Assembly (NCBI GenBank): GCA_023131895.1
Contig: JAGLYZ010000004.1
Coordinates: 29,895-93,894, forward strand
Direction: 5' to 3'
DNA from: Candidatus Parcubacteria bacterium
GTDB taxonomy: Bacteria; Patescibacteriota; Minisyncoccia; Minisyncoccales; JAGMDC01
Length of the DNA stretch: 64,000 nucleotides
Shown here: positions 8,656 through 62,050 of the stretch, piece after piece
Layout of the letters: each line of letters starts with the position of its first letter
Position numbering within the stretch: position 1 is the stretch's first letter
The notes under the pieces: generated by a model
Databases searched by the model: none
Seen by the model: the letters and a program-made list of their open reading frames with translations, nothing else
Told to the model about the DNA's origin: nothing
Program-made: the position numbers and the translations under genes

Positions 8656-8698
8656 AAGAAGCTTTACGAAGGACTGTCTTTCGTAAAGCTTCTTTTTT
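8656..8698 (+). terminator. Rho-independent terminator after the first pilin gene
   Basis: 15-bp stem AAGAAGCTTTACGAA/TTCGTAAAGCTTCTT followed by a T-run. Confidence 0.7.
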
Positions 8699-9190: not shown

Positions 9191-9210
9191 AATTTTTCAG
9201 CAGAAGATCC

Positions 9211-9229
9211 ACGAAGGTCGGGCCTTCGT
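9211..9229. repeat. REP-like hairpin (left of the RAYT gene)
   Basis: ACGAAGG-TCGGG-CCTTCGT, a 7-bp stem. Confidence 0.75.
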
Positions 9230-9238
9230 TTATCTAAA

Positions 9239-9955
9239 ATGCCAACAAGAAAACACAAATTAGCTAATAATGAGATTTATCATATTATTATTAGAGGAGT
9301 AAATGACTCTGAGATTTTTAAAGATATAAATGATTATTATAGAGCAATTTTTTCCATTTACGAATTTAATACTATTAACTCTGTTGATATCAGACAAAAA
9401 AGAGAGCAACGAGCTCTCACAAAGAAAAACATAAACCAAGGTCGGGCCTTCGTTGATAATAGAGACTTGTTAGTAGAGATATTATGTTTTTGTTTTATGC
9501 CGAATCATGTTCATTTATTGCTCAAGCAGATAAAAGATGATGGAATAACTAAATTTATGAGAAAATTGGGTTCAGGTTATGCAAGTTATTTTAACAAAAA
9601 ATACAGTCGAAAAGGTTATCTTTTTCAAGGAAGATTTTTTCCGGTTCATATTAAAACAGACGAACAATTGCAAGTTATTTTTGCTTATATTCACGTTAAT
9701 TCCATATCTTTGATAGAGCCAAAATGGAAAGAAATTGGAATCCAAGATATAGAAAAAGTCATTAGTTTTTTAGAGGATTATAAATGGTCAAGTTATCCTG
9801 ATTATATTGGCAAGAAGAATTTTCCTTCAGTAACCCATAGAAATTTTATGTTAGAAATGATGAATAAAGAAAAAGGTTGCAAAGATTTTATTGAAAATTG
9901 GATTAGGTACAAAAGCAAGATTAAAAAATTGCCAGATATTGTCTTGAAGAGCTAA
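9239..9955 (+). CDS. REP-associated tyrosine transposase-like protein (IS200/IS605 TnpA Y1 family, RAYT-like)
   Basis: HUH motif in MPNHVHLLL. Tyr-containing AYIHVN motif typical of Y1 transposases. Flanked by REP-like hairpins in opposite orientation. Confidence 0.8.
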   Translation: MPTRKHKLANNEIYHIIIRGVNDSEIFKDINDYYRAIFSIYEFNTINSVDIRQKREQRALTKKNINQGRAFVDNRDLLVEILCFCFMPNHVHLLLKQIKDDGITKFMRKLGSGYASYFNKKYSRKGYLFQGRFFPVHIKTDEQLQVIFAYIHVNSISLIEPKWKEIGIQDIEKVISFLEDYKWSSYPDYIGKKNFPSVTHRNFMLEMMNKEKGCKDFIENWIRYKSKIKKLPDIVLKS

Positions 9956-9979
9956 ACGAAGGCCCGACCTTCGTTTAGC
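9951..9979. repeat. REP-like hairpin (right of the RAYT gene, inverted relative to the left copy)
   Basis: GCTAAACGAAGG-CCCGA-CCTTCGTTTAGC, a 12-bp stem overlapping the RAYT stop codon. Confidence 0.75.
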
Positions 9980-10013
9980 TTTGATTTTTAGGATAATTTA
10001 GTATAATAAAATA

Positions 10014-15216: not shown

Positions 15217-17274
15217 ATGGATAAGAAACAGACAAAAGAAAGAATTGAAAAACTGAAAAAAGTGATACGAGAAGCAAGATATAGCTATCATGTTTTAGAT
15301 AAATCAATAATGTCTGATGCGGCTTTGGATTCTTTAAAGCATGAGCTTTTTGAATTGGAGCAGAAATATCCTGAATTTATTACACAGGATTCTCCAAGCC
15401 AGAGAATAGGCGGGAAGCCATTAGATAAATTTAAAAAAGTGCGTCATACTGTTGCCCAATGGTCTTTTAATGATGTTTTTGATGAAAGCGAACTTAGAAA
15501 TTTTGACAAGAGAATGAAAAAAGAGCTTGGAACGCAAGAAATGAATTATACTGCTGAACTGAAGATTGACGGCATGCATATTATTTTAACTTATGAAAAA
15601 GGCGTTTTGAAAACTGGAGCAACCAGAGGCGACGGCAAAGTCGGTGAGGATGCCACACAAAATCTAAAAACAATTGAATCAATTCCTTTACGGATAAAAG
15701 AAAATATTGATGTGGTTGTTGAAGGAGAGATTTTTATGAGAAAATCAGTTTTTGAAAAGTTGAATAAACAGAGAAAAGAGCGAGGACAGACCTCGTTCGC
15801 TAATCCCAGGAACGCGGCTGCTGGCGCAATTCGCCAGCTTGATTCAAAAATCGTTAAAGAACGCAAGCTTGACTGTTTTATTTACGATTATTCCTGGCCT
15901 GAAAAAGATGTGCCAGAGACCCAAATTCAAGAGCTGAAAAAATTAATGGAGCTTGGTTTTAAGGTAAATAAAAATTTTCATTATTGTAAAAATATAGATG
16001 AAGTAATAAAATTCTGGAAAGATTGGCAGAAAAAAAGAGAATCCAAGGATTTTTGGATAGATGGAATAGTGGTAAAAGTAAATCGCAGGGAATATCAGAA
16101 CAAGCTTGGCTATACAGGCAAGGCGCCTAGATGGGCAATTGCTTTTAAGTGGCCTGGTGAACAGGCAGCAACGATTTTAGAAAAAGTAGTTTTTCAAATT
16201 GGCAGAACAGGCAGGCTTACGCCAGTTGCCTGCCTAAAGCCGGTCAATATTGGCGGAGCCGTTGTTTCCAGGGCAACCCTGCATAATGCTGATGAGATTA
16301 AGCGGCTGGGAGTAAAGACCGGCGATACAGTGATTGTTGAAAAAGCTGGCGATGTTATTCCTCATATTAATAGGTTTTTGCCAGCGCTTAGGCCAAAAGA
16401 TGCTAAAAATATTCAAACTCCGGGTGCCTGCCCTGTTTGCGGTTCAAAAGTAGTTAGGCCGAAAGGAGAGGTAGCGCATTATTGTTCAAACAAAAAATGC
16501 GGAGCCAGGCAAAGAAACAAACTTTCTTGGTTTGCTTCCAAGAAAGCATTTGATATTGAAGGATTAGGGCCAAAAATCATTGACCAGTTAATGGACAAGG
16601 GATTAGTTTCAAACCCTGCTGATTTATTTACATTGAAAAAAGGAGATATAATTCCTTTGGAAAGCTTGCACCGTAAGAAGCCGAAGGCTTTCCTTCGGGG
16701 ATTTGCTGAAAAATCAAGTTCTAATTTAATACAAGCTATTGAGAAAAGCAGGACAATAACTTTGCCAAAGTTTTTGATTTCTCTTGGTATAAAATATATT
16801 GGTGAGGAAACAGCAGAACTTCTTATTCGCAAGATACAAGATACAAGACACAAGATACAAAGCATTAATAATTTAATTGATTTTTTTGAAAGTAAAAATC
16901 AAGAATATTTTGAACAAATTGATGGCATAGGTCCAAAAGCAGCCACAAGTATTAAGAATTGGTTTTCCCAAAAAGAAAACATTCAGCTTTTGCGAGATTT
17001 GTTCAAAGCCGGCGTGAAGATAGAAAAAGAAAAATTAGTAAAAAGCAGTAAATTAACCGGTAGGTCTTTTGTTTTTACCGGAGAATTGAAATCAATGTCC
17101 AGAGACAAAGCAAAAGAAAGAATAAAAGAATCAGGAGGCAAAACGCCTAATTCAATAAGCAGGAATACTGATTTTCTGGTTGTTGGCAAAAGTCCTGGTT
17201 CTAAATATGAAAAAGCAAAAGCATTGGGAATTAATATAATTTTAGAAAAAGAATTTTTAGGAATGATAAAATGA
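15217..17274 (+). CDS. ligA: NAD-dependent DNA ligase LigA
   Basis: Adenylation motif ELKIDG, OB fold, Zn finger CPVCGS...C, HhH repeats, C-terminal BRCT (FVFTGEL). The start is moved to ATG 15217 because the TTG 15142 extension spans the terminator. Confidence 0.95.
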   Translation: MDKKQTKERIEKLKKVIREARYSYHVLDKSIMSDAALDSLKHELFELEQKYPEFITQDSPSQRIGGKPLDKFKKVRHTVAQWSFNDVFDESELRNFDKRMKKELGTQEMNYTAELKIDGMHIILTYEKGVLKTGATRGDGKVGEDATQNLKTIESIPLRIKENIDVVVEGEIFMRKSVFEKLNKQRKERGQTSFANPRNAAAGAIRQLDSKIVKERKLDCFIYDYSWPEKDVPETQIQELKKLMELGFKVNKNFHYCKNIDEVIKFWKDWQKKRESKDFWIDGIVVKVNRREYQNKLGYTGKAPRWAIAFKWPGEQAATILEKVVFQIGRTGRLTPVACLKPVNIGGAVVSRATLHNADEIKRLGVKTGDTVIVEKAGDVIPHINRFLPALRPKDAKNIQTPGACPVCGSKVVRPKGEVAHYCSNKKCGARQRNKLSWFASKKAFDIEGLGPKIIDQLMDKGLVSNPADLFTLKKGDIIPLESLHRKKPKAFLRGFAEKSSSNLIQAIEKSRTITLPKFLISLGIKYIGEETAELLIRKIQDTRHKIQSINNLIDFFESKNQEYFEQIDGIGPKAATSIKNWFSQKENIQLLRDLFKAGVKIEKEKLVKSSKLTGRSFVFTGELKSMSRDKAKERIKESGGKTPNSISRNTDFLVVGKSPGSKYEKAKALGINIILEKEFLGMIK

Positions 17275-29282: not shown

Positions 29283-31821
29283 TAAAATTTTTTTAGTTCC
29301 TCATACTCATTACGATGCTGTTTGGGTTTTTACCAGAGAGGATTATTTCCATATCAATATAGATATTATTCTTAAAAAAGTTGTTGAGCTAATCAAAAAA
29401 AAGAAAGATTACAGGTTTTTGATAGAGCAGACATATCTTTTAGAAGAAGTGAAAAAACATTATCCAGAGTTTTTTAGGGAGATTAGAAAATATGTCCAGC
29501 AGGGAAAGATTGAAATTGCAGACGGAGAATATTTAATGGCTGATACAATGCTTCCCCAAGGAGAGACATTGATTAGGGAAATAATGGTTGGCAAACAGTT
29601 TGTTAAAAAGGAATTTGATAAAGATGTGGAAGTAATGTGGCAGGCAGACAGTTTTGGCTTGAATGCCCAGCTTCCTCAAATATACAAAAAGTCTGGTTAT
29701 AAATATTTAGCTTTCAGGCGCGGTTCTTTCAAAAACAAGCCGTCAGAGTTTATCTGGCAGGCATTAGATGGAACAGGAATTATTTCTCATTTTATGCCAT
29801 TAGGTTACAGGGCTGGTCTGAATCTTGTGAATCTTGATAAGAGTTATGAAAAGCTTAAAAAACTATCTGCTACAAACAATATATTAATGCCTTCTGGAAG
29901 CGGGGTGACAATGCCTCAAGAAAAAACAATGAGGGCAGTGAGGAGTTGGAACAAAGACCATAACTCTAAAATGATAATTGCCTTGCCATCAGAATTTTTC
30001 AAAAGTTTAAATAAAGATATTAAAAAATTACCAATTAGAAAAGGGGAAATGTATTCAGGAAGGCATTCTCGTGTTTTCCCGAGCACTTCGTCAAGCAGGA
30101 TATGGCTTAAAATAAATTTAAGAGAATGTGAAAATAAACTAATTGCCTTTGAGAAATTCGATTTAATTAATTCTCTTTTTAGAAATAATTACTTTGAAGA
30201 AATCAATGGTTGCTGGAAAAGGGTTTTATTTTTAGCTTTTCACGATGTTGTTCCTGGGACAGGAATTGATGCTGGATACAATGAGGCAAGAGATGATATT
30301 GAGTTTTTAAATGAGAAACTTCCTAATTTAATTTCTGATGTTCTAGATTCAATTATTGCTAAAGATGCCAATAATGAGGATTACGGTGATATTGCAGTTT
30401 TTAATTCTTTATCCTGGGATGTTTCTAACTGGGCAGAAGTTATTTTAAATTTTAAACAAGGAAAAGTTTTGAAAATAAATGGAGTAAGAAGCGGAAAAGA
30501 GGAAAAGGAAGTTGAAATTATAGAATTATCAAAGCATCAAGATGGATCTTTTAAAAAAGTGAAAATAGGCTTTATCGCTGATGTTCCGGCAACAGGGTAT
30601 AAAGTATATAAGATTATCACAAACAAGCCAAAAACAATTAAAGATTCTTTTTTACAACAGAAAGATGATTCAATTGAAAATAAGTTTTTTAAACTTCAGT
30701 TTTCTAAAGAAAACGGACTTATAAAAGTTTTTAAACAAGGCAAGCAGATATGCCAAGGAAATGAAATAGTTATTGACGATGAAGCAGGGGATTTATACAC
30801 CCATAAAGAAAGTTTTGATTTCCCCCTAAAAACAGAAAGCGGACAAGGATTGAAATACGGCGCTTTTAAGCTCAAAAAGCTTTGGGTTGACAGCTCTTGT
30901 TTAAGAAAAATTATTAATATAGAGACTGATTATTATTCTTTAAAATGGCCATACAGATTAATAGACAGCTTAAAGCCAATAATTTGGAGATATCCTTTTA
31001 TAAAATTCAAAAAACAGATAATTGTCTATAAAGACATTCCAAGAATTGACTTTGCTATCAGGATTGAAAATAATCATCCAAAAATAAGATTAAGAGTAAA
31101 GCTTGACACTGATATAAATAAATCAGATTATACTTGCGACAGCCAATTCGGTATAGTAAAGAGAAAGACAAACCAGTATTTTTTAAAGAAAAAGGGCTGG
31201 TCAGAAAATCCATCAGGTTTGTTCCCTTGTTTGAGATGGTTTGATTATAGTAATAACAAAAAAGGTATAACTATTATAAATAAAGGTAATTCTGAAAGCG
31301 AGATAAGAGATAAAAGCATGTATTTAACATTATTAAGGTCAATAGATATGCTTTCTTGCGATGGCAGGGCAGGCCCTATAATTCCGGTTTCTGACGCTAG
31401 AGAATTAAAACATTATACTTTTCAGTATTCTATTTATCCTCATTCTCAAGACTGGAAAAAAGCAAAATCTTGGAAGCATGGTTATGAATTTAATAATTGT
31501 TTAGTTTCGTTTCAAACAGAAGGAAAGAAAAGATATAGGCCTAAAAATTCATTTTTAAAAATTAAACCTGATAATATTATAGTAAGCGCTTTGAAAAAAG
31601 CAGAAGATGATAAAGATATAATTGTTCGGTTTTATGAGGTATCTGGTAAAAACACAAAAGCATTAATAACTATATTTAAAAAAATAAAAGATGTGAAGGC
31701 AGTTAATTTAATGGAAAAGGAGAAGAAAGAATTGAATAAAAAAATTACTTTCAACGAAGGCAATATCAAGCTTGAAATTAAGCCGTTTGAAATTATCACT
31801 TTAAAAATAACTTTATTTTAA
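29275..31821 (+). CDS. Glycoside hydrolase family 38 alpha-mannosidase (MngB-like)
   Basis: N-terminal VPHTHYDAVW metal-binding motif, WQADSFG, about 850 aa multi-domain architecture typical of GH38. Confidence 0.8.
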   Translation: MNNKIFLVPHTHYDAVWVFTREDYFHINIDIILKKVVELIKKKKDYRFLIEQTYLLEEVKKHYPEFFREIRKYVQQGKIEIADGEYLMADTMLPQGETLIREIMVGKQFVKKEFDKDVEVMWQADSFGLNAQLPQIYKKSGYKYLAFRRGSFKNKPSEFIWQALDGTGIISHFMPLGYRAGLNLVNLDKSYEKLKKLSATNNILMPSGSGVTMPQEKTMRAVRSWNKDHNSKMIIALPSEFFKSLNKDIKKLPIRKGEMYSGRHSRVFPSTSSSRIWLKINLRECENKLIAFEKFDLINSLFRNNYFEEINGCWKRVLFLAFHDVVPGTGIDAGYNEARDDIEFLNEKLPNLISDVLDSIIAKDANNEDYGDIAVFNSLSWDVSNWAEVILNFKQGKVLKINGVRSGKEEKEVEIIELSKHQDGSFKKVKIGFIADVPATGYKVYKIITNKPKTIKDSFLQQKDDSIENKFFKLQFSKENGLIKVFKQGKQICQGNEIVIDDEAGDLYTHKESFDFPLKTESGQGLKYGAFKLKKLWVDSSCLRKIINIETDYYSLKWPYRLIDSLKPIIWRYPFIKFKKQIIVYKDIPRIDFAIRIENNHPKIRLRVKLDTDINKSDYTCDSQFGIVKRKTNQYFLKKKGWSENPSGLFPCLRWFDYSNNKKGITIINKGNSESEIRDKSMYLTLLRSIDMLSCDGRAGPIIPVSDARELKHYTFQYSIYPHSQDWKKAKSWKHGYEFNNCLVSFQTEGKKRYRPKNSFLKIKPDNIIVSALKKAEDDKDIIVRFYEVSGKNTKALITIFKKIKDVKAVNLMEKEKKELNKKITFNEGNIKLEIKPFEIITLKITLF

Positions 31822-31829
31822 GAAAAATT

Positions 31830-32177
31830 ATGGAAAATAAAAACAATAGAAAACCCTGGGGTTCTTTTGAAATCATAAAACAAGGCAAAGGTTATAAAAT
31901 TAAAAAATTGATGGTCCTGTCAGGTAAAAGATTAAGCTTGCAAAAACACAATAAAAGAAAAGAACATTGGGTGGTTGTCAGGGGGACAGCTAAGGTTGTT
32001 GTTGGAGAAAAAGAATTTATTTTAAAGCAAGGCGAGCATTGCTTTATAGATATAAAAGAAAAACATCGTTTGGAAAATCCTGGAGAATCAGTGCTTGAAG
32101 TTATTGAAATTCAAATAGGAGATTATTTAGGAGAAGATGATATAGAACGTCTTGAAGACGACTTCAATAGGGCATAA
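31830..32177 (+). CDS. Cupin domain protein, mannose-6-phosphate isomerase type II C-terminal-like
   Basis: PWGSFE...LSLQKHNKRKEHWVVVRGTAKV...H.LENPG pattern of type II PMI cupins. Confidence 0.7.
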   Translation: MENKNNRKPWGSFEIIKQGKGYKIKKLMVLSGKRLSLQKHNKRKEHWVVVRGTAKVVVGEKEFILKQGEHCFIDIKEKHRLENPGESVLEVIEIQIGDYLGEDDIERLEDDFNRA

Positions 32178-32324
32178 AAATATAATATATTTAAATAAAC
32201 AAAACTGTGAAAAAATTTACAAAAATCTGGAATTTTCCTGCGAAAAATTCCCAAATTCTTTTTTTTTGAAAAAACTTCAGATAAGCACATATGTTAGGCG
32301 ACATATTTTTTAGATATAATTAAA

Positions 32325-32855
32325 ATGAATAAAGAAATAATTTTTTTTGATGGTGATGGCACACTCTAGTATCCAGAATCAACTAAGTATATAGAAAAGC
32401 CACATTGGATATACTTGAAGAGTAAAAATGTAGATGATCATTACAAATATTTAGTTATGATACCAACAGTGATTTCTACTTTGAAAAAACTAAAGAAAGT
32501 GGGGATTCTTATCGTATTACTTTCAACACATCCACACCCACCAAAAGAAGCTGATTCTATAATCAATCATAAGGTAAAGCATTTCAAGTTAGATGAACTT
32601 TTTGATGAGATTCATGCGACCAAAGAATATCATGGTTCAAAAGGAGAATTTATTGTAAAAATATTAAAAGAACGCGGAATATCAAAAAGCAAAGCTCTAA
32701 TGGTTGGTGATCATTATTATTGGGATTATGAACCAGCAAGAAATGTAGGTGTGGATGCATTGCTGATTGAATCAGAATATATGAAGAAGTTTATTCAAAG
32801 TAGAAGAATAAAAAGAACGATCAAAAAATTATCAGATATATTTAATTATATTTAA
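32325..32855 (+). pseudogene. HAD-family hydrolase gene with an in-frame TAG (likely TGG to TAG) in motif I
   Basis: ATG 32325 encodes MNKEIIFFDGDGTL then TAG at 32367, then continues in the same frame (YPESTKYIEKPHWIY...) into ORF 32415-32855 with MVGDHYYWDYEPARNVG. Confidence 0.6.
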
Positions 32856-33277
32856 AAAATACGCTTCGGGGTCGTTGCACTTGATTTTCTTCCGCTATCG
32901 CTACATAACACAAGTATATCTGGCTCGCTCCTGCCGTTGCTCGACCCATATTTGCCTCCATAGATTGAAATGATAATATGGAATGGAGGCAAACATCAGA
33001 TATGCTGATACATTATATATCATAAAGTTTTGATAATTGAGAGAATAGCAAAAAGGTTTTCTTTTACCTTTTAAAAGGTAAAAGAAATGGTGCGCGAAGC
33101 ATGTCGTTAGTTTCGTTCAAAATAAGTTCGGATTTAATTAAACAACCATACCAAAAAATCGCCTTATGGCGATTTTTTTAGTGCACTATATTAAAGATAG
33201 TTAGAACATTTTTCGCTCGCTTCGCTGATGCCTCGGCGAAGCGGGCCGTCTGCGGCGGCGATGAAGCCCCCAAAAAT

Positions 33278-33303
33278 TCAGAGCGGCTTCGCCGCGTTCT
33301 TTA
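33278..33303. repeat. 26-bp inverted repeat, left copy
   Basis: TCAGAGCGGCTTCGCCGCGTTCTTTA is the exact reverse complement of 34137-34162. Contains hairpin GCGGC-TTC-GCCGC. Confidence 0.85.
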
Positions 33304-33372
33304 ACAATTTCAAGTTTTTCTTTGGCGGCAAATTCTAAAAAAGAAAAAAGCGGGCGAGGTTATCGCACCAAA

Positions 33373-34038
33373 TCAATCAATTAATATAAAACATCTACCA
33401 TAGATAGATCTAGTTTCATCTGAAAATGTTAAATTTTTGGGGCAACAAGCAAAATAACATTTTTTCTCTCCAGCAGTTGGTCCCAATTCGCAACCAAGCG
33501 GTCTCCATTCACAATTTGGAGTCTCTTCGCAGGGAAAATGTGAGCGTTCAGATGCTGAAACAATATCCTTTCCCACATTACACTTATCCATAATGGCTTC
33601 TGGCTTTCCTTTTAACTCGCAACAATCAAAATAACAAGTCCAGTTCCATTGTGAAACAAATTTCTCTATTTTCAGTCCTTCTTCTACAGCGGAGGCCTTA
33701 ACAAATTTACAATTGCAATTAGTAAAATCAAAATCTTTATATTTTTGCCATTCCTTGTACCAAATATTTTCTTTTCTCACCTCTTTTGAGATCATTATTT
33801 GAATGAAATCTTTCAATCTGTTTCCGCACAATTTCTTTTGTTCTTCTTGGTTGCCGGGAGGGCCTTCTTCATCACCGGCACCCATTCCAAAGTAAATATT
33901 ATGACAATCTAACTTTTCCACTTGCGAAGATTTAGATATGTCCTCTGGTTCTGTTTCTCTTTTTTCCCCACCGCCAGCGATGACGATAATGGTGATTAGA
34001 ACAATTATTCCACCAATAATTAGAATTACTTTTTTCAT
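33373..34038 (-). CDS. Secreted/membrane-anchored cysteine-rich protein, unknown function
   Basis: N-terminal hydrophobic helix, then a domain with about 16 Cys including CC and CxC pairs. No recognisable family. Confidence 0.6.
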   Translation of the reverse strand: MKKVILIIGGIIVLITIIVIAGGGEKRETEPEDISKSSQVEKLDCHNIYFGMGAGDEEGPPGNQEEQKKLCGNRLKDFIQIMISKEVRKENIWYKEWQKYKDFDFTNCNCKFVKASAVEEGLKIEKFVSQWNWTCYFDCCELKGKPEAIMDKCNVGKDIVSASERSHFPCEETPNCEWRPLGCELGPTAGEKKCYFACCPKNLTFSDETRSIYGRCFILID

Positions 34039-34136
34039 ATTTTTGAAAGTTAAAATGAATAAAACTTATGTAAATTTTCTTTTATTAAAATGTGGTTCGA
34101 GCCGATATTTTTTACAGGTTCTTTAGTAGTTTTTAA

Positions 34137-34162
34137 TAAAGAACGCGGCGAAGCCGCTCTGA
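34137..34162. repeat. 26-bp inverted repeat, right copy
   Basis: TAAAGAACGCGGCGAAGCCGCTCTGA. Lies 11 nt from the 3' end of tRNA-Leu(GAG). Confidence 0.85.
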
Positions 34163-34173
34163 CTTTTTCTCGG

Positions 34174-34262
34174 TGGTGCGGACGAAGGGACTCGAACCCT
34201 TATGGAGAAAAATCTCCCAGGAGCCTCAGTCCTGTGCGTCTAGCCAATTGCGCCACGTCCGC
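34174..34262 (-). tRNA. tRNA-Leu (anticodon GAG), CCA encoded
   Basis: Acceptor GCGGACG/CGTCCGC, anticodon stem CAGGA/TCCTG with loop CTGAGGC, variable-arm stem GGAGA/TCTCC, T-arm AAGGG-TTCGAGT-CCCTT, 3' ACCA. Confidence 0.9.
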
Positions 34263-34883
34263 TTATTTGTTTTCTTTGTCCGTTGGAGTTTCAGAAGAAA
34301 CGGATTTCTTTTCTTCTATTTTTTCTTCATTGCTTTCTGTGGTTTCAGCAACAGCTGGTTTTTTTTCTGTTTCTTTCCCCTCTACTTTTTGTTCTGGTTC
34401 CGGTTTTGATTCTGGTTCAATTTTAGGTTCCAGCCCAGATTCTTCTGGGCGAGGCTCGCTCCCTTCGGGAGCAGCTGGAGTTGCTGTGACATCAGGAAGG
34501 CCTTTTCTTTTTAAACGTGCCTTTCTACCTTTTGCTTCTCTTAAATAAAATAGTTTTGCTCTTCTTACTTTTCCTCTTTTAGTTATCTCTATTTTTTGAA
34601 TAAGAGGTGAATTGATAGGAAGAATTTTTTCTACTCCAATACCAGCAATAATTTTTCTTACAGTTATAGTAGCATTTATCCCTTTTCCATGTTTTCTAGC
34701 TAAGACCAAGCCTTCAAATACTTGAATTTTTTCTTTGTCTTTTTCCGCACTTTTTGTCTTTTTGCTTTTCACGCCAGATATTGCTGGAATTATCTGATGA
34801 ATGCGAACAGTATCACCAGGCCTGATATCTGGCAGGCCCTTTCTTAATTGCGACTTATTAAATTGTTCAACGATATTTGACAT
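34263..34883 (-). CDS. rplS: 50S ribosomal protein L19 with internal insertion and long Glu/Lys/Pro-rich C-terminal tail
   Basis: LPDIRPGDTVRIH, FEGLVLARKHGKG, ATITVRKI, GVEKILPINSP, RAKLFYLR. Confidence 0.9.
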   Translation of the reverse strand: MSNIVEQFNKSQLRKGLPDIRPGDTVRIHQIIPAISGVKSKKTKSAEKDKEKIQVFEGLVLARKHGKGINATITVRKIIAGIGVEKILPINSPLIQKIEITKRGKVRRAKLFYLREAKGRKARLKRKGLPDVTATPAAPEGSEPRPEESGLEPKIEPESKPEPEQKVEGKETEKKPAVAETTESNEEKIEEKKSVSSETPTDKENK

Positions 34884-34893
34884 ACTAATAAAA

Positions 34894-35526
34894 TTATTTT
34901 AACGTTTTTATTACTTTTTTCAAGTCCACTGACAATTCTGAACTAAACTTTTTTCTCTCTCCATTCGGTAATTTTATGGTTAGTTCGTGGGCGTGTAGAA
35001 ATTGTCGTTTTAATCCTTTTGGACAGGGCTGATTTTTAAAACCGTATAATTTATCTCCAGCAATAGGATGTCCTAAAGCTGCAAAATGGCATCTGATTTG
35101 ATGTTTTCTGCCAGTTTTTGGCTCTGCTTCTATTAAAGAATACTCCTTAAATCTCTCTAAAATCCTATATTCTGTTATTGCTTTTCTTAATCCTTTTCTT
35201 TTTGCATCTGGCTCATTTGGTAAATATGTTTTTTGTTTTTTTCTATTTTTTAGAGACCGTCCTATTAAAGTTTCGATTTTACCTTTTACGGAGGACGGGC
35301 CTCCGGAGACTAATGCAAGATATTTTTTAATTACCGTTCTATTCTTAAACTGTTTTTGAAAAAAATCAAGAGCTTTGCTGTTCTTAGCTATTAACAAAAT
35401 TCCAGATGTATCTTTATCTAAACGGTGGATTCTCTTTTCAAAATCGTCAGAATTTATTCCTGCTGGCTTATCAATCACTAATAAATCATCATCTTGATAA
35501 ATAATTTTTAGCTTTTCTTTTTTCAT
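34894..35526 (-). CDS. RluA family pseudouridine synthase
   Basis: VIDKPAG, catalytic HRLDKDTSGILLIAK, KKYLALV, GRKHQIR, FLHAHEL. Confidence 0.85.
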   Translation of the reverse strand: MKKEKLKIIYQDDDLLVIDKPAGINSDDFEKRIHRLDKDTSGILLIAKNSKALDFFQKQFKNRTVIKKYLALVSGGPSSVKGKIETLIGRSLKNRKKQKTYLPNEPDAKRKGLRKAITEYRILERFKEYSLIEAEPKTGRKHQIRCHFAALGHPIAGDKLYGFKNQPCPKGLKRQFLHAHELTIKLPNGERKKFSSELSVDLKKVIKTLK

Positions 35527-35610: not shown

Positions 35611-35686
35611 TGGTGGGCGTGGCAGGACTCGAACCTGCGAACCTAACGCTTATAAGACGTTTGCTCTACCACTGAGCTACACGCCC
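35611..35686 (-). tRNA. tRNA-Ile (anticodon UAU), CCA encoded
   Basis: Acceptor GGGCGTG/CACGCCC, D-arm GCTC-AGTGGTA-GAGC, anticodon stem AACGT/GCGTT with loop CTTATAA, T-arm GCAGG-TTCGAGT-CCTGC. The variable region appears to be 6 nt. Confidence 0.75.
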
Positions 35687-35693
35687 AATTTAA

Positions 35694-36368
35694 TTATATA
35701 TTTTTACTTAAATAATAATCACTGATAGATTTCAATCCCATAAGTATTTTTTCCGTCAGCCTCGCATCCCCAATTTTCACATTACAAGTACCATGACCAA
35801 AACTTCCTTTATGATTTATACTCGCCTTATCTGTTTTTTTGATATAGGGTTTATTAAATTGGGAAATGGGAATATTTAAAATTTCTGACCAAAATTTTAT
35901 TTCTTTAGCAATATTCATATCTTTATATAAATGAAGATGAACCTTAAGTTTCTCCTTAGGTACCTTTAAACTTTTTATTAGCCAATCCATAAAAAATTTT
36001 ATAATTGAGGGATCTGTATTTGATACAGAAAGACGACACATACCAACTTTTGCTCCTTCTCCCCAATAAAGAAATAAACCGGCAAGATATAATTCTCGTT
36101 TATCAAAGGGAAAAATAATTCTTTTTTGTTCTTTACAAAATTTATTTAACCTTTCTTCTTTCTTTTTTCTTTTTGTTTCTCGGCATTTTTCAATTCTCTG
36201 CTCATTCCAGTCACGAAGTTCCCTTATTCTTTTTTTAGATAAAGGGTAATCTTTAAGCCAAGCACTCAAAGTACTTTTACTTACTTTTAATATCTTTTTG
36301 ATTTGGCTATAACTCATTCCTTGTTTTCTTAGAGTTAAGGCCATTTGATGATCTTTAAACTTAGCCAT
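35694..36368 (-). CDS. HTH domain protein with a LAGLIDADG-like motif (possible free-standing homing endonuclease)
   Basis: N-terminal HTH-like QGMSYSQIKKILKVSKSTLSAWL. YLAGLFLYWGEGAK resembles the LAGLIDADG/GEG motif. Sits between a tRNA gene and a duplicated tRNA 5' stub. Confidence 0.5.
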   Translation of the reverse strand: MAKFKDHQMALTLRKQGMSYSQIKKILKVSKSTLSAWLKDYPLSKKRIRELRDWNEQRIEKCRETKRKKKEERLNKFCKEQKRIIFPFDKRELYLAGLFLYWGEGAKVGMCRLSVSNTDPSIIKFFMDWLIKSLKVPKEKLKVHLHLYKDMNIAKEIKFWSEILNIPISQFNKPYIKKTDKASINHKGSFGHGTCNVKIGDARLTEKILMGLKSISDYYLSKNI

Positions 36369-57712: not shown

Positions 57713-59119
57713 CTATTCAAGATAATTCTTTTCAAACCACCAGGTTAGGATTTTTTGGACATCATCTTTGAGGTCGTCGGATTTTAAAAGAACAATTATA
57801 ATATTGTGCGAAGTGTTGTCTGGCAATGGCAATTCAAATATAAATATGCCGGTATATTTTGATTCTATAATAAATCCGGTTTTGCCGCCTAAAAAGTCCT
57901 TGCTTTCCGGAAAAATATTTTTGTTATGCAAATCTTCAAAATGAACTGTTCCAAAATCCTCTATTGTTTCTCCTTTGCTGATTTTCAAAAGAGGAGGCCT
58001 GGTATTGAAAATATATTGGCTCAAATAGAAAAGATCTTGTGCAGTAGAAACGTTTTTTTCGCTTAAGCCGCTCGGGTCGTCGTAAAAAGTATTTTTCATG
58101 CCAATCATTTTTGTTTTTTCATTCATTAATCTTATTGTTTTTTCTCTTCCTGAAAAGCGGGTTAAAATTTCAGCAGCGTCATTAGATGATTGAGTTAAAA
58201 GAGGATGAAGGAGTTCAACTAAATTGTATTTTTTTCCAGCTTCTAATCCTGGCGTAGAGCCATATGCTTTTAACATTTCTTTTGTAACCCAGATTGATTT
58301 TCTTAAATCATTATTCTCAATAGCAGCTATGGCAGTCATTAGTTTAGTTAAAGAAGCTATGGGCATTATTTTTTCAGGATTTTTTTCAGCCAAAATATAA
58401 TAATTATCAAGGTCGGCAATTAAATAAGATTCAGCAGATATTTCAGAAATAACGAAGGTCGGGCCTTCGTTGGCTAACGAAGGCCCGACCTTCGTTAGCT
58501 TGTCAATTATTAAAACAGGCATTTCTATCTCTGCAGCATTATAAATGTATTCTGCATCTTCATTAGAGAATCTAACACAACCGCCAGTATAATTGAATTC
58601 AGTTGATTGGCCATTGGAATAATACGGTTCTCCGTGAATATAGTATTTACCGTAAAAATTAATGCTCCATGGCATATAAACATGAGCAATATTGGAAAAA
58701 GCAGTTTTGTGTCCGGAAATCACTTTATAAAGACCCGAAGGAACTCCTCCCCAAAATTCAGGATCTCCTTTGGCTAAAATAGGAAGTTCTTTTTCTAATG
58801 CGCCATTTTTATAAATTTGAGCTTTCATTTCTGAAAGATTAATTTCTAAAAAATCTGTTTTTTTAGAAATAAATTCCTGCCTTTTTTCAAAACCAAAATC
58901 TTTTAATTGTTTTAGTTTTATTTCTTTTTGCTTGAGTCCTTGAAGCGTATCAGCGCTGAGAATAGTCTGATTACTTTTAGTCTCTACAAAAATTTCATTG
59001 CCAGGCATTATAAAAATTAAAAAAGCAAAAAGCCCGATTAAAAGGGCTAAAAAAATAATAGATATGCAGTTTTTTTTCAGTTTAGAACTAATCATCAGTT
59101 TATCCCGCACCTTTTTCAA
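57713..59119 (-). CDS. Fusion of an L,D-transpeptidase (YkuD) domain and a D-alanyl-D-alanine carboxypeptidase (peptidase S11) domain
   Basis: YkuD catalytic block YIHGEP...TGGCVRF. S11 SxxK motif PIASLTKLMT plus SSND (SxN). REP pair in-frame between the domains. Confidence 0.8.
   Translation of the reverse strand: MKKVRDKLMISSKLKKNCISIIFLALLIGLFAFLIFIMPGNEIFVETKSNQTILSADTLQGLKQKEIKLKQLKDFGFEKRQEFISKKTDFLEINLSEMKAQIYKNGALEKELPILAKGDPEFWGGVPSGLYKVISGHKTAFSNIAHVYMPWSINFYGKYYIHGEPYYSNGQSTEFNYTGGCVRFSNEDAEYIYNAAEIEMPVLIIDKLTKVGPSLANEGPTFVISEISAESYLIADLDNYYILAEKNPEKIMPIASLTKLMTAIAAIENNDLRKSIWVTKEMLKAYGSTPGLEAGKKYNLVELLHPLLTQSSNDAAEILTRFSGREKTIRLMNEKTKMIGMKNTFYDDPSGLSEKNVSTAQDLFYLSQYIFNTRPPLLKISKGETIEDFGTVHFEDLHNKNIFPESKDFLGGKTGFIIESKYTGIFIFELPLPDNTSHNIIIVLLKSDDLKDDVQKILTWWFEKNYLE
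58451..58497. repeat. Inverted pair of REP-like hairpins inside a CDS
   Basis: AACGAAGG-TCGGG-CCTTCGTT GGC TAACGAAGG-CCCGA-CCTTCGTTA. Translated (minus strand) within KLTKVGPSLANEGPTFVI. Confidence 0.85.
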
Positions 59120-61897: not shown

Positions 61898-62050
61898 ATA
61901 ACCTGATTGAGTATTATTAATCCTCAATCAGGAATTTCTAATTTCTAATTTCTAAACAAATCCTCTGGCTTTGCCAAATTTGGCATGGCCAGATAATTTC
62001 TAAACAAATTCTAAAATTCCAAACAAAACCCAAATTACAAAAAAAACTCA

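Follow-up and report, generated by a model that had tools for sequence, protein, structure and literature searches.

The Bracketed Gene and Its Hairpin Repeats

This report concerns a short inverted repeat, here called H, two copies of which bracket a single gene for a cysteine-rich (Cys-rich) protein beside a tRNA-Leu(GAG) gene in a Candidatus Parcubacteria bacterium (GenBank assembly GCA_023131895.1, contig JAGLYZ010000004.1, positions 29,895 to 93,894 of the forward strand). The whole stretch of 64,000 nucleotides (nt) that was analysed is referred to as the window, and positions are those of the window unless another contig is named. As is argued below from comparisons with other genomes, the repeats may mark the ends of a small cassette whose cargo can be exchanged.

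The 26-mer TCAGAGCGGCTTCGCCGCGTTCTTTA occurs at 33278-33303 on the forward strand and at 34137-34162 on the reverse strand, the two being exact reverse complements with 0 mismatches, and these are its only 2 matches in the window even when up to 3 mismatches are allowed. As 100 dinucleotide-preserving shuffles gave 0 matches, a chance origin of the pair was rejected. The perfect 26-bp inverted repeats described in an earlier note, made from the sequence alone, were thus recovered and also lengthened, given that a repeat finder carries the arms to 32 nt (33272-33303 and 34137-34168) with 1 mismatch and a spacer of 833 nt. In strain L002, which is 99.4% identical, the arms agree at 32/32 positions, with an A at window position 34163, where the window has a C.

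The left arm (33272-33303, perfect core 33278-33303, forward strand) reads A5-N-TCAGA-GCGGC-TTC-GCCGC-GTTCTTTA and lies 69 nt past the stop codon of the Cys-rich gene, while the right arm (34137-34168, perfect core 34137-34162, reverse strand) lies 11 nt past the 3' end of the tRNA-Leu(GAG) gene and abuts the upstream region of the Cys-rich gene, module P. Each arm is a hairpin of its own, GCGGC-TTC-GCCGC, a feature that the earlier note had not mentioned. Its 5-bp GC stem folds and an AGA/TCT extension pairs across a 2-nt bulge, so that H may be written as a short GC-rich imperfect palindrome, AGAGCGGC-TTC-GCCGCGTTCT, which A5 borders at one end and a T-rich tract at the opposite end. When terminators were scanned for, both arms came out as terminator-like on both strands (5 GC pairs, a 3-nt loop, and 5 or more T in 8). 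The better T run (GCCGC-TCTGAATTTTT) faces outward at both ends of the bracketed segment and, the arms being inverted, the same face is turned inward at both.

The other terminators of the window and of its relatives all differ from H in sequence, and no further member of an H family was found among the 34 GC-rich segments of the window, by which a window-wide family of GC-rich repeats was rejected. A weak 17-nt similarity at 15848-15864, inside a DNA ligase gene, was put down to chance. The Rfam searches (gathering or E-value thresholds; window and the two contigs L021 and L024 introduced below) returned no known RNA family for H or for the flanking modules S, P, and Q.

The bracketed open reading frame (ORF), at 33373-34038 on the reverse strand, encodes 221 aa with an N-terminal membrane anchor or signal and two Cys-rich modules (aa ~41-149 and ~145-221), ending in YGRCFILID. 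The 885-bp span does hold this gene whole, together with 98 nt upstream of it, and the right repeat does lie 11 nt from the 3' end of the tRNA-Leu(GAG) gene (34174-34262, reverse strand), both of which the earlier note had stated. The protein has no Pfam or NCBIfam match, and its family amounted to 34 clusters among 1.8 billion representatives in an exhaustive profile-free search. The two modules also occur apart, and the C-terminal one, with its YGRCFxLID end, is often found alone in proteins of ~100 aa. The homologues compared (L004-L006) lie in unrelated contexts, and their surroundings contain neither H nor any comparable inverted repeats.

Hairpin H and Its Flanks in Other Genomes

A metagenome scan for H in which the loop was left free gave 4 matches, 2 of which, in low-GC contigs, are real relatives. 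These are L021 (Ga0315289_10096191) and L024 (BBPD01007082.1), both low-GC metagenome contigs of Parcubacteria. The exact 21-nt core, sought in one genome per species, gave 9 single matches, all in GC-rich taxa, which were taken as chance. The viral contigs searched held nothing relevant to H, and the phage and plasmid collections returned a tRNA match only. The search for further copies of the 26-mer thus found H not to be private to the locus, as it is present in L021 and L024, in both cases with shared flanks.

The similarity among the window, L021, and L024 extends well past H and is modular, and from the alignment of the three the names S, P (with a distal part, P1, and a proximal part, P2), and Q were assigned. 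On the reverse strand of the window the order is tRNA-Leu(GAG), H, P1-P2, the Cys-rich ORF, Q', H', S', and T2', where T2 is a terminator described below. In L024 the order is tRNA-Cys, tRNA-Leu(TAA), S, H, P1-P2, a 2-hydroxyacid dehydrogenase ORF, and Q', where the contig ends. The reverse strand of L021 carries a partial P1/P2, an HNH-type ORF, Q', H', S', a T2-like hairpin, and the end of a PAP2 gene, the HNH-type gene being on the opposite strand to the reading PAP2, T2, S, H, Q.

The S-H-Q portion of the window is 93% identical to that of L021 over 76 nt, its H-P portion 86-91% identical to that of L024 over 117-145 nt, and its S 91-97% identical to that of L024, while the Q modules of L021 and L024 are 94% identical over 51 nt. 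H itself is identical at 25-26 of its 26 positions across the three genomes, and the flanking modules differ by 5-14%. The homology ends exactly at both edges of H, and the junctions found are S/H/Q (window and L021), S/H/P (L024), and tRNA/H/P (window). Judged from these alignments, H is the apparent point at which the flanks were reshuffled.

The upstream region P (34039-34136, reverse strand; 98 nt) is divided into P1 (34087-34136), which was seen only adjoining H, and P2 (34039-34086). The 48 nt of P2 are homologous to the native upstream region of the 2-hydroxyacid dehydrogenase gene (L024, L025-L030). A scan for sigma-70 promoters found no consensus upstream of the Cys-rich ORF within the segment, so that the promoter which the earlier note had taken to lie inside is a putative one. 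The 48 nt of P2 nonetheless have a conserved counterpart ahead of an unrelated gene, and this conservation suggests that P2 may hold expression signals. In the 3' region Q' (33304-33372, reverse strand), positions 33304-33336 are homologous to the 3' flanks of the dehydrogenase gene of L024 and of the HNH-type gene of L021, while the Cys-rich ORF brings a 3' tail of its own (about 43 nt; 33337-33372) with a small hairpin and a T run. The motifs of P2 and Q' are each found once in the window, by which the idea that they are general expression signals of this genome was rejected.

The hairpin-rich module S (33183-33277, forward strand; ~66-95 nt) always lies beside H, on one side of it, and shows 91-97% identity to its counterparts in L024 and L021. 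Its hairpin follows the pattern CGCCGYC-TGC-GGCGGYG, with changes that are compatible with G.U pairs on the forward strand, and S-H folds as a plausible three-hairpin structure, with no compensatory changes and weak z-scores. An nhmmer search of 250 kb of Parcubacteria DNA found no further copies of S. In the lineage of the window only, a 31-nt GC mini-hairpin (CTCGCYTCGCTGAWGCYWCGGCGAAGCGGGC, 33216-33246) has been inserted into S. A copy of this mini-hairpin, with 87-90% identity, is seen at positions 942-972 of the contig L016, in a diverged S-like stretch upstream of a HisKA histidine kinase gene. Just outside S lies T2 (33153-33179), a canonical bidirectional terminator of the form AAAAAA-TCGCC-TTAT-GGCGA-TTTTTTT, and an analogous hairpin stands at the equivalent place in L021.

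Reuse of a Dehydrogenase Gene Frame

P2, which makes up the ~50 nt preceding the ATG, and the initial ~20 nt of Q' (AGAATTTGCCGCC, right after the stop codon) also flank the 2-hydroxyacid dehydrogenase gene in L025-L030, which are Wildermuthbacteria-type contigs with no H, S, or P1, and the Q' motif is likewise found 3' of the dehydrogenase gene in L052 and L054, again with no H. Since it is the dehydrogenase gene that P2 and the beginning of Q' natively flank, the frame around the Cys-rich ORF is a reused one, and unrelated ORFs, the Cys-rich one in the window and the HNH-type one in L021, are the occupants of this one frame.

The dehydrogenase unit itself appears to be a horizontally mobile gene unit, judging by its sequence conservation and its contexts: it is 89% identical between L051 and L054, where IF-2 is 63% and RbfA 52% identical, and tRNA genes are its neighbours in all four contexts. 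Many lineages of the Candidate Phyla Radiation (CPR) have this 2-hydroxyacid (D-lactate) dehydrogenase gene at 74-95% identity, as seen in L024/L051, L025-L031, and L052-L054.

The Islet at tRNA-Leu(GAG)

The bracketed gene is part of a strain-specific islet of ~2.1 kb (32178-34262), which lies between a cupin/mannose-6-phosphate isomerase gene (31830-32177, forward strand) and rplS (34263-34883, reverse strand), the product of which is most similar to Candidatus Parcubacteria proteins. The gene order across it is GH38 mannosidase, cupin, HAD hydrolase, ~500 nt free of ORFs, the Cys-rich ORF, tRNA-Leu, and rplS, the last three on the reverse strand; beyond rplS follow genes for an rluA-type pseudouridine synthase, tRNA-Val, tRNA-Ile, a 224-aa protein with a helix-turn-helix (HTH), and FtsH, all on the reverse strand.

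In three relatives (L016, L017, and L018), rplS and tRNA-Leu(GAG) are separated from the cupin gene, which is met at its stop, by a single canonical bidirectional terminator; the rplS product of L016 is 75% identical to that of the window. Neither the Cys-rich gene nor the HAD gene is present at this site in these three relatives, the HAD gene is also absent from it in L019, and synteny is kept on both sides of the islet with nothing homologous in between. At the same spot, L019 carries a different insert with a rubrerythrin/EncFtn-like gene. This gene follows a direct duplication of the 3' end of the tRNA-Leu gene (8403-8900 of L019; two copies of caagtcccgccctgggcacatc with a distance of 81 nt), in which one may see an apparent integration scar.

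The tRNA-Leu(GAG) gene of the window (34174-34262, reverse strand), which has an encoded CCA and starts right after the rplS stop, shows 59-66% identity to its counterparts at this position in L016, L017, and L019, whereas these share 80-98% with one another. On this comparison it is a xenolog, replaced along with the islet and, given that the relatives keep both flanks, the replaced segment is 32178-34262. The locus is therefore a horizontally acquired accessory islet, and the relatives do not share its arrangement as core genome. This agrees with the earlier note, which had taken the locus for an accessory islet at a tRNA gene, with a pseudogene and ~500 nt without ORFs on its left side.

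The pseudogene in question (32325-32855, forward strand) belongs to the HAD family of hydrolases and is a very recent one: its single nonsense codon is the TAG at 32367-32369, the corresponding codon of L002 is TGG, and the HAD product of L002 is intact (176 aa). Over 31800-34900 the window and L002 differ at 6 positions, 5 of which are in non-coding parts of the islet. The ~500 nt after the pseudogene hold no ORF of at least 60 aa, and the ORF-free part at 32856-33182 showed no detectable relative and no coding remnant. Apart from one chance 10-mer, no part of the tRNA is repeated over 9 nt or more in 31800-34173, so that a directly repeated tRNA 3' end is missing from the islet.

Beyond rplS, the 224-aa protein encoded at 35694-36368 (reverse strand) has an N-terminal HTH (HTH_23/HTH_7), weak matches to transposase HTHs, and, by eye, a LAGLIDADG-like stretch (LAGLFLYWGEGAK). 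Its gene lies between FtsH and the tRNA-Ile and tRNA-Val genes and, as it is absent there in L016, L017, and L019, it is a second small insertion beside tRNA genes. The neighbouring tRNA-Ile has the anticodon TAT (35611-35686, reverse strand) and is conserved in the window, L002, L016, L017, and L019; bacteria do not commonly rely on a tRNA-Ile(TAT) for the reading of AUA. Farther away, between chaperonin and LemA genes, there is a 74-nt imperfect palindrome (61942-62015) with overlapping 42-nt arms that are 76% complementary.

A Putative Cargo-Swapping Cassette

Taken together, these observations lead us to propose, with moderate confidence, that the H copies bound a non-autonomous cassette that travels horizontally and swaps its cargo, and that its arms now serve as terminators. 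The two arms are copies of one discrete GC-rich hairpin module of 26-32 nt, placed at the ends of a putative single-gene expression cassette of ~0.9 kb, and H would be a recombination-prone, travelling terminator hairpin, of which an inverted pair bounds the exchangeable segment in the manner of terminal inverted repeats. What the alignments offer in favour of this is a candidate cassette with inverted ends and no transposase inside, whose modules recur in unrelated contexts, the two ends being found together in neither L021 nor L024.

The ancestral repeat may have been longer, with S-H on both sides (~95-nt inverted repeats) and a later loss of S on the tRNA side. From an ancestral double S-H with losses on the 5' side, one could derive the three arrangements and also account for the break of the L024 contig before the expected H'. 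As for movement, the candidates are transposition in trans, hairpin-directed single-strand recombination, and RecA recombination following DNA uptake.

At the present site, the arms would most likely serve as intrinsic terminators or as insulators. The right arm would most likely terminate the rluA-rplS-tRNA-Leu transcript, in place of the different terminators of the relatives, and the left arm would most likely terminate the transcript of the Cys-rich gene and, from the other side, transcription from S or the HAD gene. Termination fits the terminator-like structure of the arms and their positions, +11 nt from the tRNA and +69 nt from the ORF.

Several points weigh against the proposal. H is low-copy, with 2 copies in the 64 kb of the window and 0 in a further ~190 kb of Parcubacteria DNA (nhmmer, 250 kb in total). 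The frame is carried by three genomes, and both arms are demonstrated only in the window strain and its near-identical sisters, given that the P remnant of L021 is preceded by 41 nt in which there is no H and that the L024 contig ends ~20 nt before the expected H', the NCBI copy ending at the same base. No target-site direct repeat of 2-12 nt was found around the cassette, the flanks (...CCCCC/AAAAAT and CTTTTT/CTCGG) being inverted, with AAAAAT and CTTTTT belonging to the inverted repeat itself, and no transposase is known whose ends match. The presence of S at a single end, together with the lack of a target-site duplication, disfavours a transposon with terminal inverted repeats. The terminator strength of H is modest, its U tracts being short or interrupted and its folding z-scores unremarkable.

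The earlier note had suggested a non-autonomous mobile cassette, and this suggestion holds in so far as H and its flanks recur at 86-100% identity in L021 and L024, in other neighbourhoods and around other ORFs; it does not hold as regards the marks of transposition, as there is neither a target-site duplication nor a cognate transposase and both arms are seen in the window strain only.

The CPR bacteria, or Patescibacteria, have tiny genomes with few recognised mobile elements, and their exchange of accessory genes is poorly understood. Here, a set of non-coding modules of ~300 nt is conserved at 86-100% between Parcubacteria, lies beside tRNA genes, and accompanies three unrelated ORFs. Should the pattern hold in more genomes, it would amount to a portable gene slot, which would give a handle on accessory genes in CPR metagenomes and a candidate recombination site; should it fail, what would be left is a horizontally acquired islet with a gene between two copies of one terminator.

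Alternative Explanations

The same junctions can be read as products of inversion, in which the segment between the H copies is, or was, inverted at H, either by a rare RecA event on the 32-bp repeats or by a recombinase encoded elsewhere. The S/H/Q junctions of the window and L021 and the S/H/P junction of L024 would then be two isomers relative to a fixed S side, and L021 would later have lost H' and the adjacent part of P1, locking its orientation. Indeed, the S/H/P junction of L024 is exactly the one expected from a flipped window, and in L021 neither H' nor the part of P1 nearer to H (one half of it) is present, a loss that a single deletion would produce. The arms have also stayed identical to each other (26/26, and 32/32 in L002) despite strain polymorphisms in the islet, and H is kept at 25-26/26 across genomes against a difference of 5-14% in the flanking modules. 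Moreover, as no sigma-70 promoter was detected inside, expression could need read-through from rplS/tRNA-Leu, in which case the orientation would matter.

On the other hand, three independent assemblies from different samples (the metagenome-assembled genome at NCBI, ERZ23498665, and ERZ23498525) show one and the same orientation, and neither a serine nor a tyrosine recombinase turned up in Pfam scans of essentially all window ORFs of at least 120 aa, those within 10 kb on either side included. The gene also carries its conserved upstream region along when it moves, L024 gives no proof of a second H, and the same junction pattern arises if S-H ancestrally stood at both ends and was then lost differentially. 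Given this, we consider inversion at H unlikely, though a serious rival as an event in evolutionary time, and the H pair does not appear to be a programmed on/off switch. The invertible segment that the earlier note had offered as its other option thus found no support in the orientation of the assemblies or in the recombinase content of the window, yet L024 does have the flip-type S/H/P junction.

A different set of explanations starts from an enzyme encoded elsewhere in the window. Within a type IV pilus cluster, the ORF at 9239-9955 (forward strand) encodes an IS200-like Y1 (HUH) transposase (Y1_Tnp in Pfam, E 8e-11), whose best NCBIfam match is the family of REP-associated tyrosine transposases (RAYT; REP, repetitive extragenic palindrome), at 4.8e-11, which is below the curated cut-off. 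This gene is bracketed by 32-nt inverted GC hairpins (9204-9235 and 9950-9981) that stand 714 nt apart, a geometry like that of the H pair. The hairpins belong to a family of the form ACGAAGG-N5-CCTTCGT (ACGAAGG-TCGGG-CCTTCGT), with 6 copies in the window against 0.06 expected, its further sites being at 8656-8694, 9435-9453, and 58450-58497, with one copy inside the Y1 ORF. The last of these sites is a perfect inverted hairpin doublet, which lies in frame in the linker between YkuD and Peptidase_S11 in a 468-aa ORF (57713-59119), a cell-wall enzyme gene. The window therefore appears to hold a RAYT/REP-like system in a CPR genome, and the literature searched gave no link of RAYTs or REPINs (REP doublets forming hairpins) with Patescibacteria. 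With its different sequence and low copy number, H is not a member of this hairpin family. Still, the Y1 enzyme makes hairpin-directed transactions of single-stranded DNA plausible in the genome of the window.

Building on this, the H-bounded frames could represent a new class of hairpin-bounded, cargo-swapping cassettes in the CPR, in which conserved promoter and 3' sequences, set between inverted terminator hairpins, would serve as a scaffold that is moved or flipped by an HUH Y1 (RAYT-like) enzyme through single-strand hairpins and reloaded with different ORFs. If true, this would be a minimal system of gene exchange for organisms with genomes of ~1 Mb; we regard it as speculative and rather improbable.

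In another version, H is a REP/REPIN-like single-strand hairpin element handled by an HUH Y1 (RAYT-like) enzyme, such as that of 9239-9955, and the two arms are elements of this kind at either end of the gene. The presence of a RAYT-like Y1 gene in the window with the same bracketing geometry speaks for it, as do the excess of Y1-associated hairpins, with 6 copies against 0.06 expected and an inverted doublet among them, and the recurrence in L016 of the other GC mini-hairpin, that inserted into S at 33216-33246. Nevertheless, H differs in sequence from the Y1-flanking hairpins and is low-copy, the 64 kb having 2 copies and the other loci compared from Parcubacteria having none, and its cargo-bearing spacer of 833 nt is unlike that of REPIN doublets. 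In addition, the H/P1 and Q/H' junctions are each inherited intact in two genomes, which implies that the arms are not independent insertions. A REP-like origin is accordingly a distinctly improbable one.

A simpler possibility is that the arms are plain terminators, produced by local inverted duplication or gene conversion of one bidirectional terminator, with no mobility at all and no further role. Both arms are terminator-like and stand at the 3' ends of transcription units, and in the relatives, too, tRNA-Leu is followed at this place by a bidirectional terminator. However, the same 26-mer is found with its flanks in other organisms, in other neighbourhoods, and around other ORFs, the homology of the flanks breaks exactly at the edges of H, and the other terminators of the window and its relatives differ in sequence. 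This explanation is thus very unlikely.

That the locus is what is left of an integrative element targeting the tRNA, and the repeats its decayed attachment sites, is largely refuted and highly improbable. The islet does abut the tRNA 3' end, and L019 has a direct duplication of the tRNA-Leu 3' end, but in the islet the tRNA 3' end is not directly repeated over 9 nt or more, bar the chance 10-mer, there is no integrase within 10 kb, and the repeats are inverted and not derived from the tRNA. Known architectures of other kinds were also rejected: an integron cassette, since the ends of H (AAAGAAC/GTTCTTT) are unfit for the attC boxes RYYYAAC...GTTRRRY, the repeats are inverted, and there is no integrase; and a module of the Xer/dif type, since the symmetry of H is that of a 5-bp stem with a 3-nt loop and a bulged 3-bp extension, where such a module would have two half-sites of ~11 bp with 6-8 nt between them. 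A diversity-generating retroelement was set aside, as its defining features are missing.

Comparison with Known Systems

According to PMC6542083, and to Chen et al. 1999 as cited there, mobile insertion cassettes (MICs; for example, MIC231 of Bacillus cereus) and MITEs (miniature inverted-repeat transposable elements) have a passenger gene bounded by inverted repeats and a transposase that acts in trans. The H cassette resembles them in its inverted-repeat ends, its passenger gene, the lack of a transposase inside, and its different genomic contexts. It differs in that it has no target-site duplication, no cognate insertion sequence with such ends and no copy beyond this pair in the window, and S at one end only, and in that its ends are hairpins of the terminator type and its cargo varies within a conserved putative promoter and 3' frame.

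At RAYT loci, inverted pairs of REPs bracket a single gene in what is the classical arrangement (PMC5581495, PMC3337134). Like the REPs, H is a short GC-rich imperfect palindrome at the 3' ends of genes that forms an inverted pair around one gene. Unlike the REP/REPIN-RAYT systems, which have tens to hundreds of copies and spacers of a few tens of nt, H has 2 copies and a spacer of 833 nt, the bracketed gene is a cargo, and the Y1 gene is flanked by a different hairpin, not by H.

In invertons, such as fimS, the Hin/Gin systems, and the invertible promoters of Bacteroides, inverted repeats of 10-40 bp bracket a segment. The H repeats likewise bracket a segment of less than 1 kb, and an alternative junction exists in another genome (L024), whereas here no recombinase gene lies nearby, a whole gene is bracketed together with its upstream region, and one orientation is found in all assemblies.

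The pdif modules of Acinetobacter plasmids are single-gene modules between inverse 28-bp XerC/XerD sites, with 11-bp half-sites and a 6-nt spacer. They share with the H cassette a varying cargo between short inverse sites, different backbones, and the exchange of flanks exactly at the sites. H, in contrast, has a 5-bp GC stem with a 3-nt loop and is chromosomal, in a CPR bacterium with no Xer gene in the window.

Phage morons are genes with a promoter and terminator of their own, dropped between other genes. As in morons and bidirectional terminators, H is a GC stem with A/T tracts at the 3' ends of convergent or tandem units, and the whole is a self-contained unit between conserved genes; what sets it apart from both is the presence of two identical inverted copies, the base-level conservation across distant genomes, and the coincidence of these copies with the breakpoints of module exchange. 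Judged from the three genomes compared, the H cassette would be a variant of the MIC/MITE-like or pdif-module-like cassettes, combined with REP-like hairpins.

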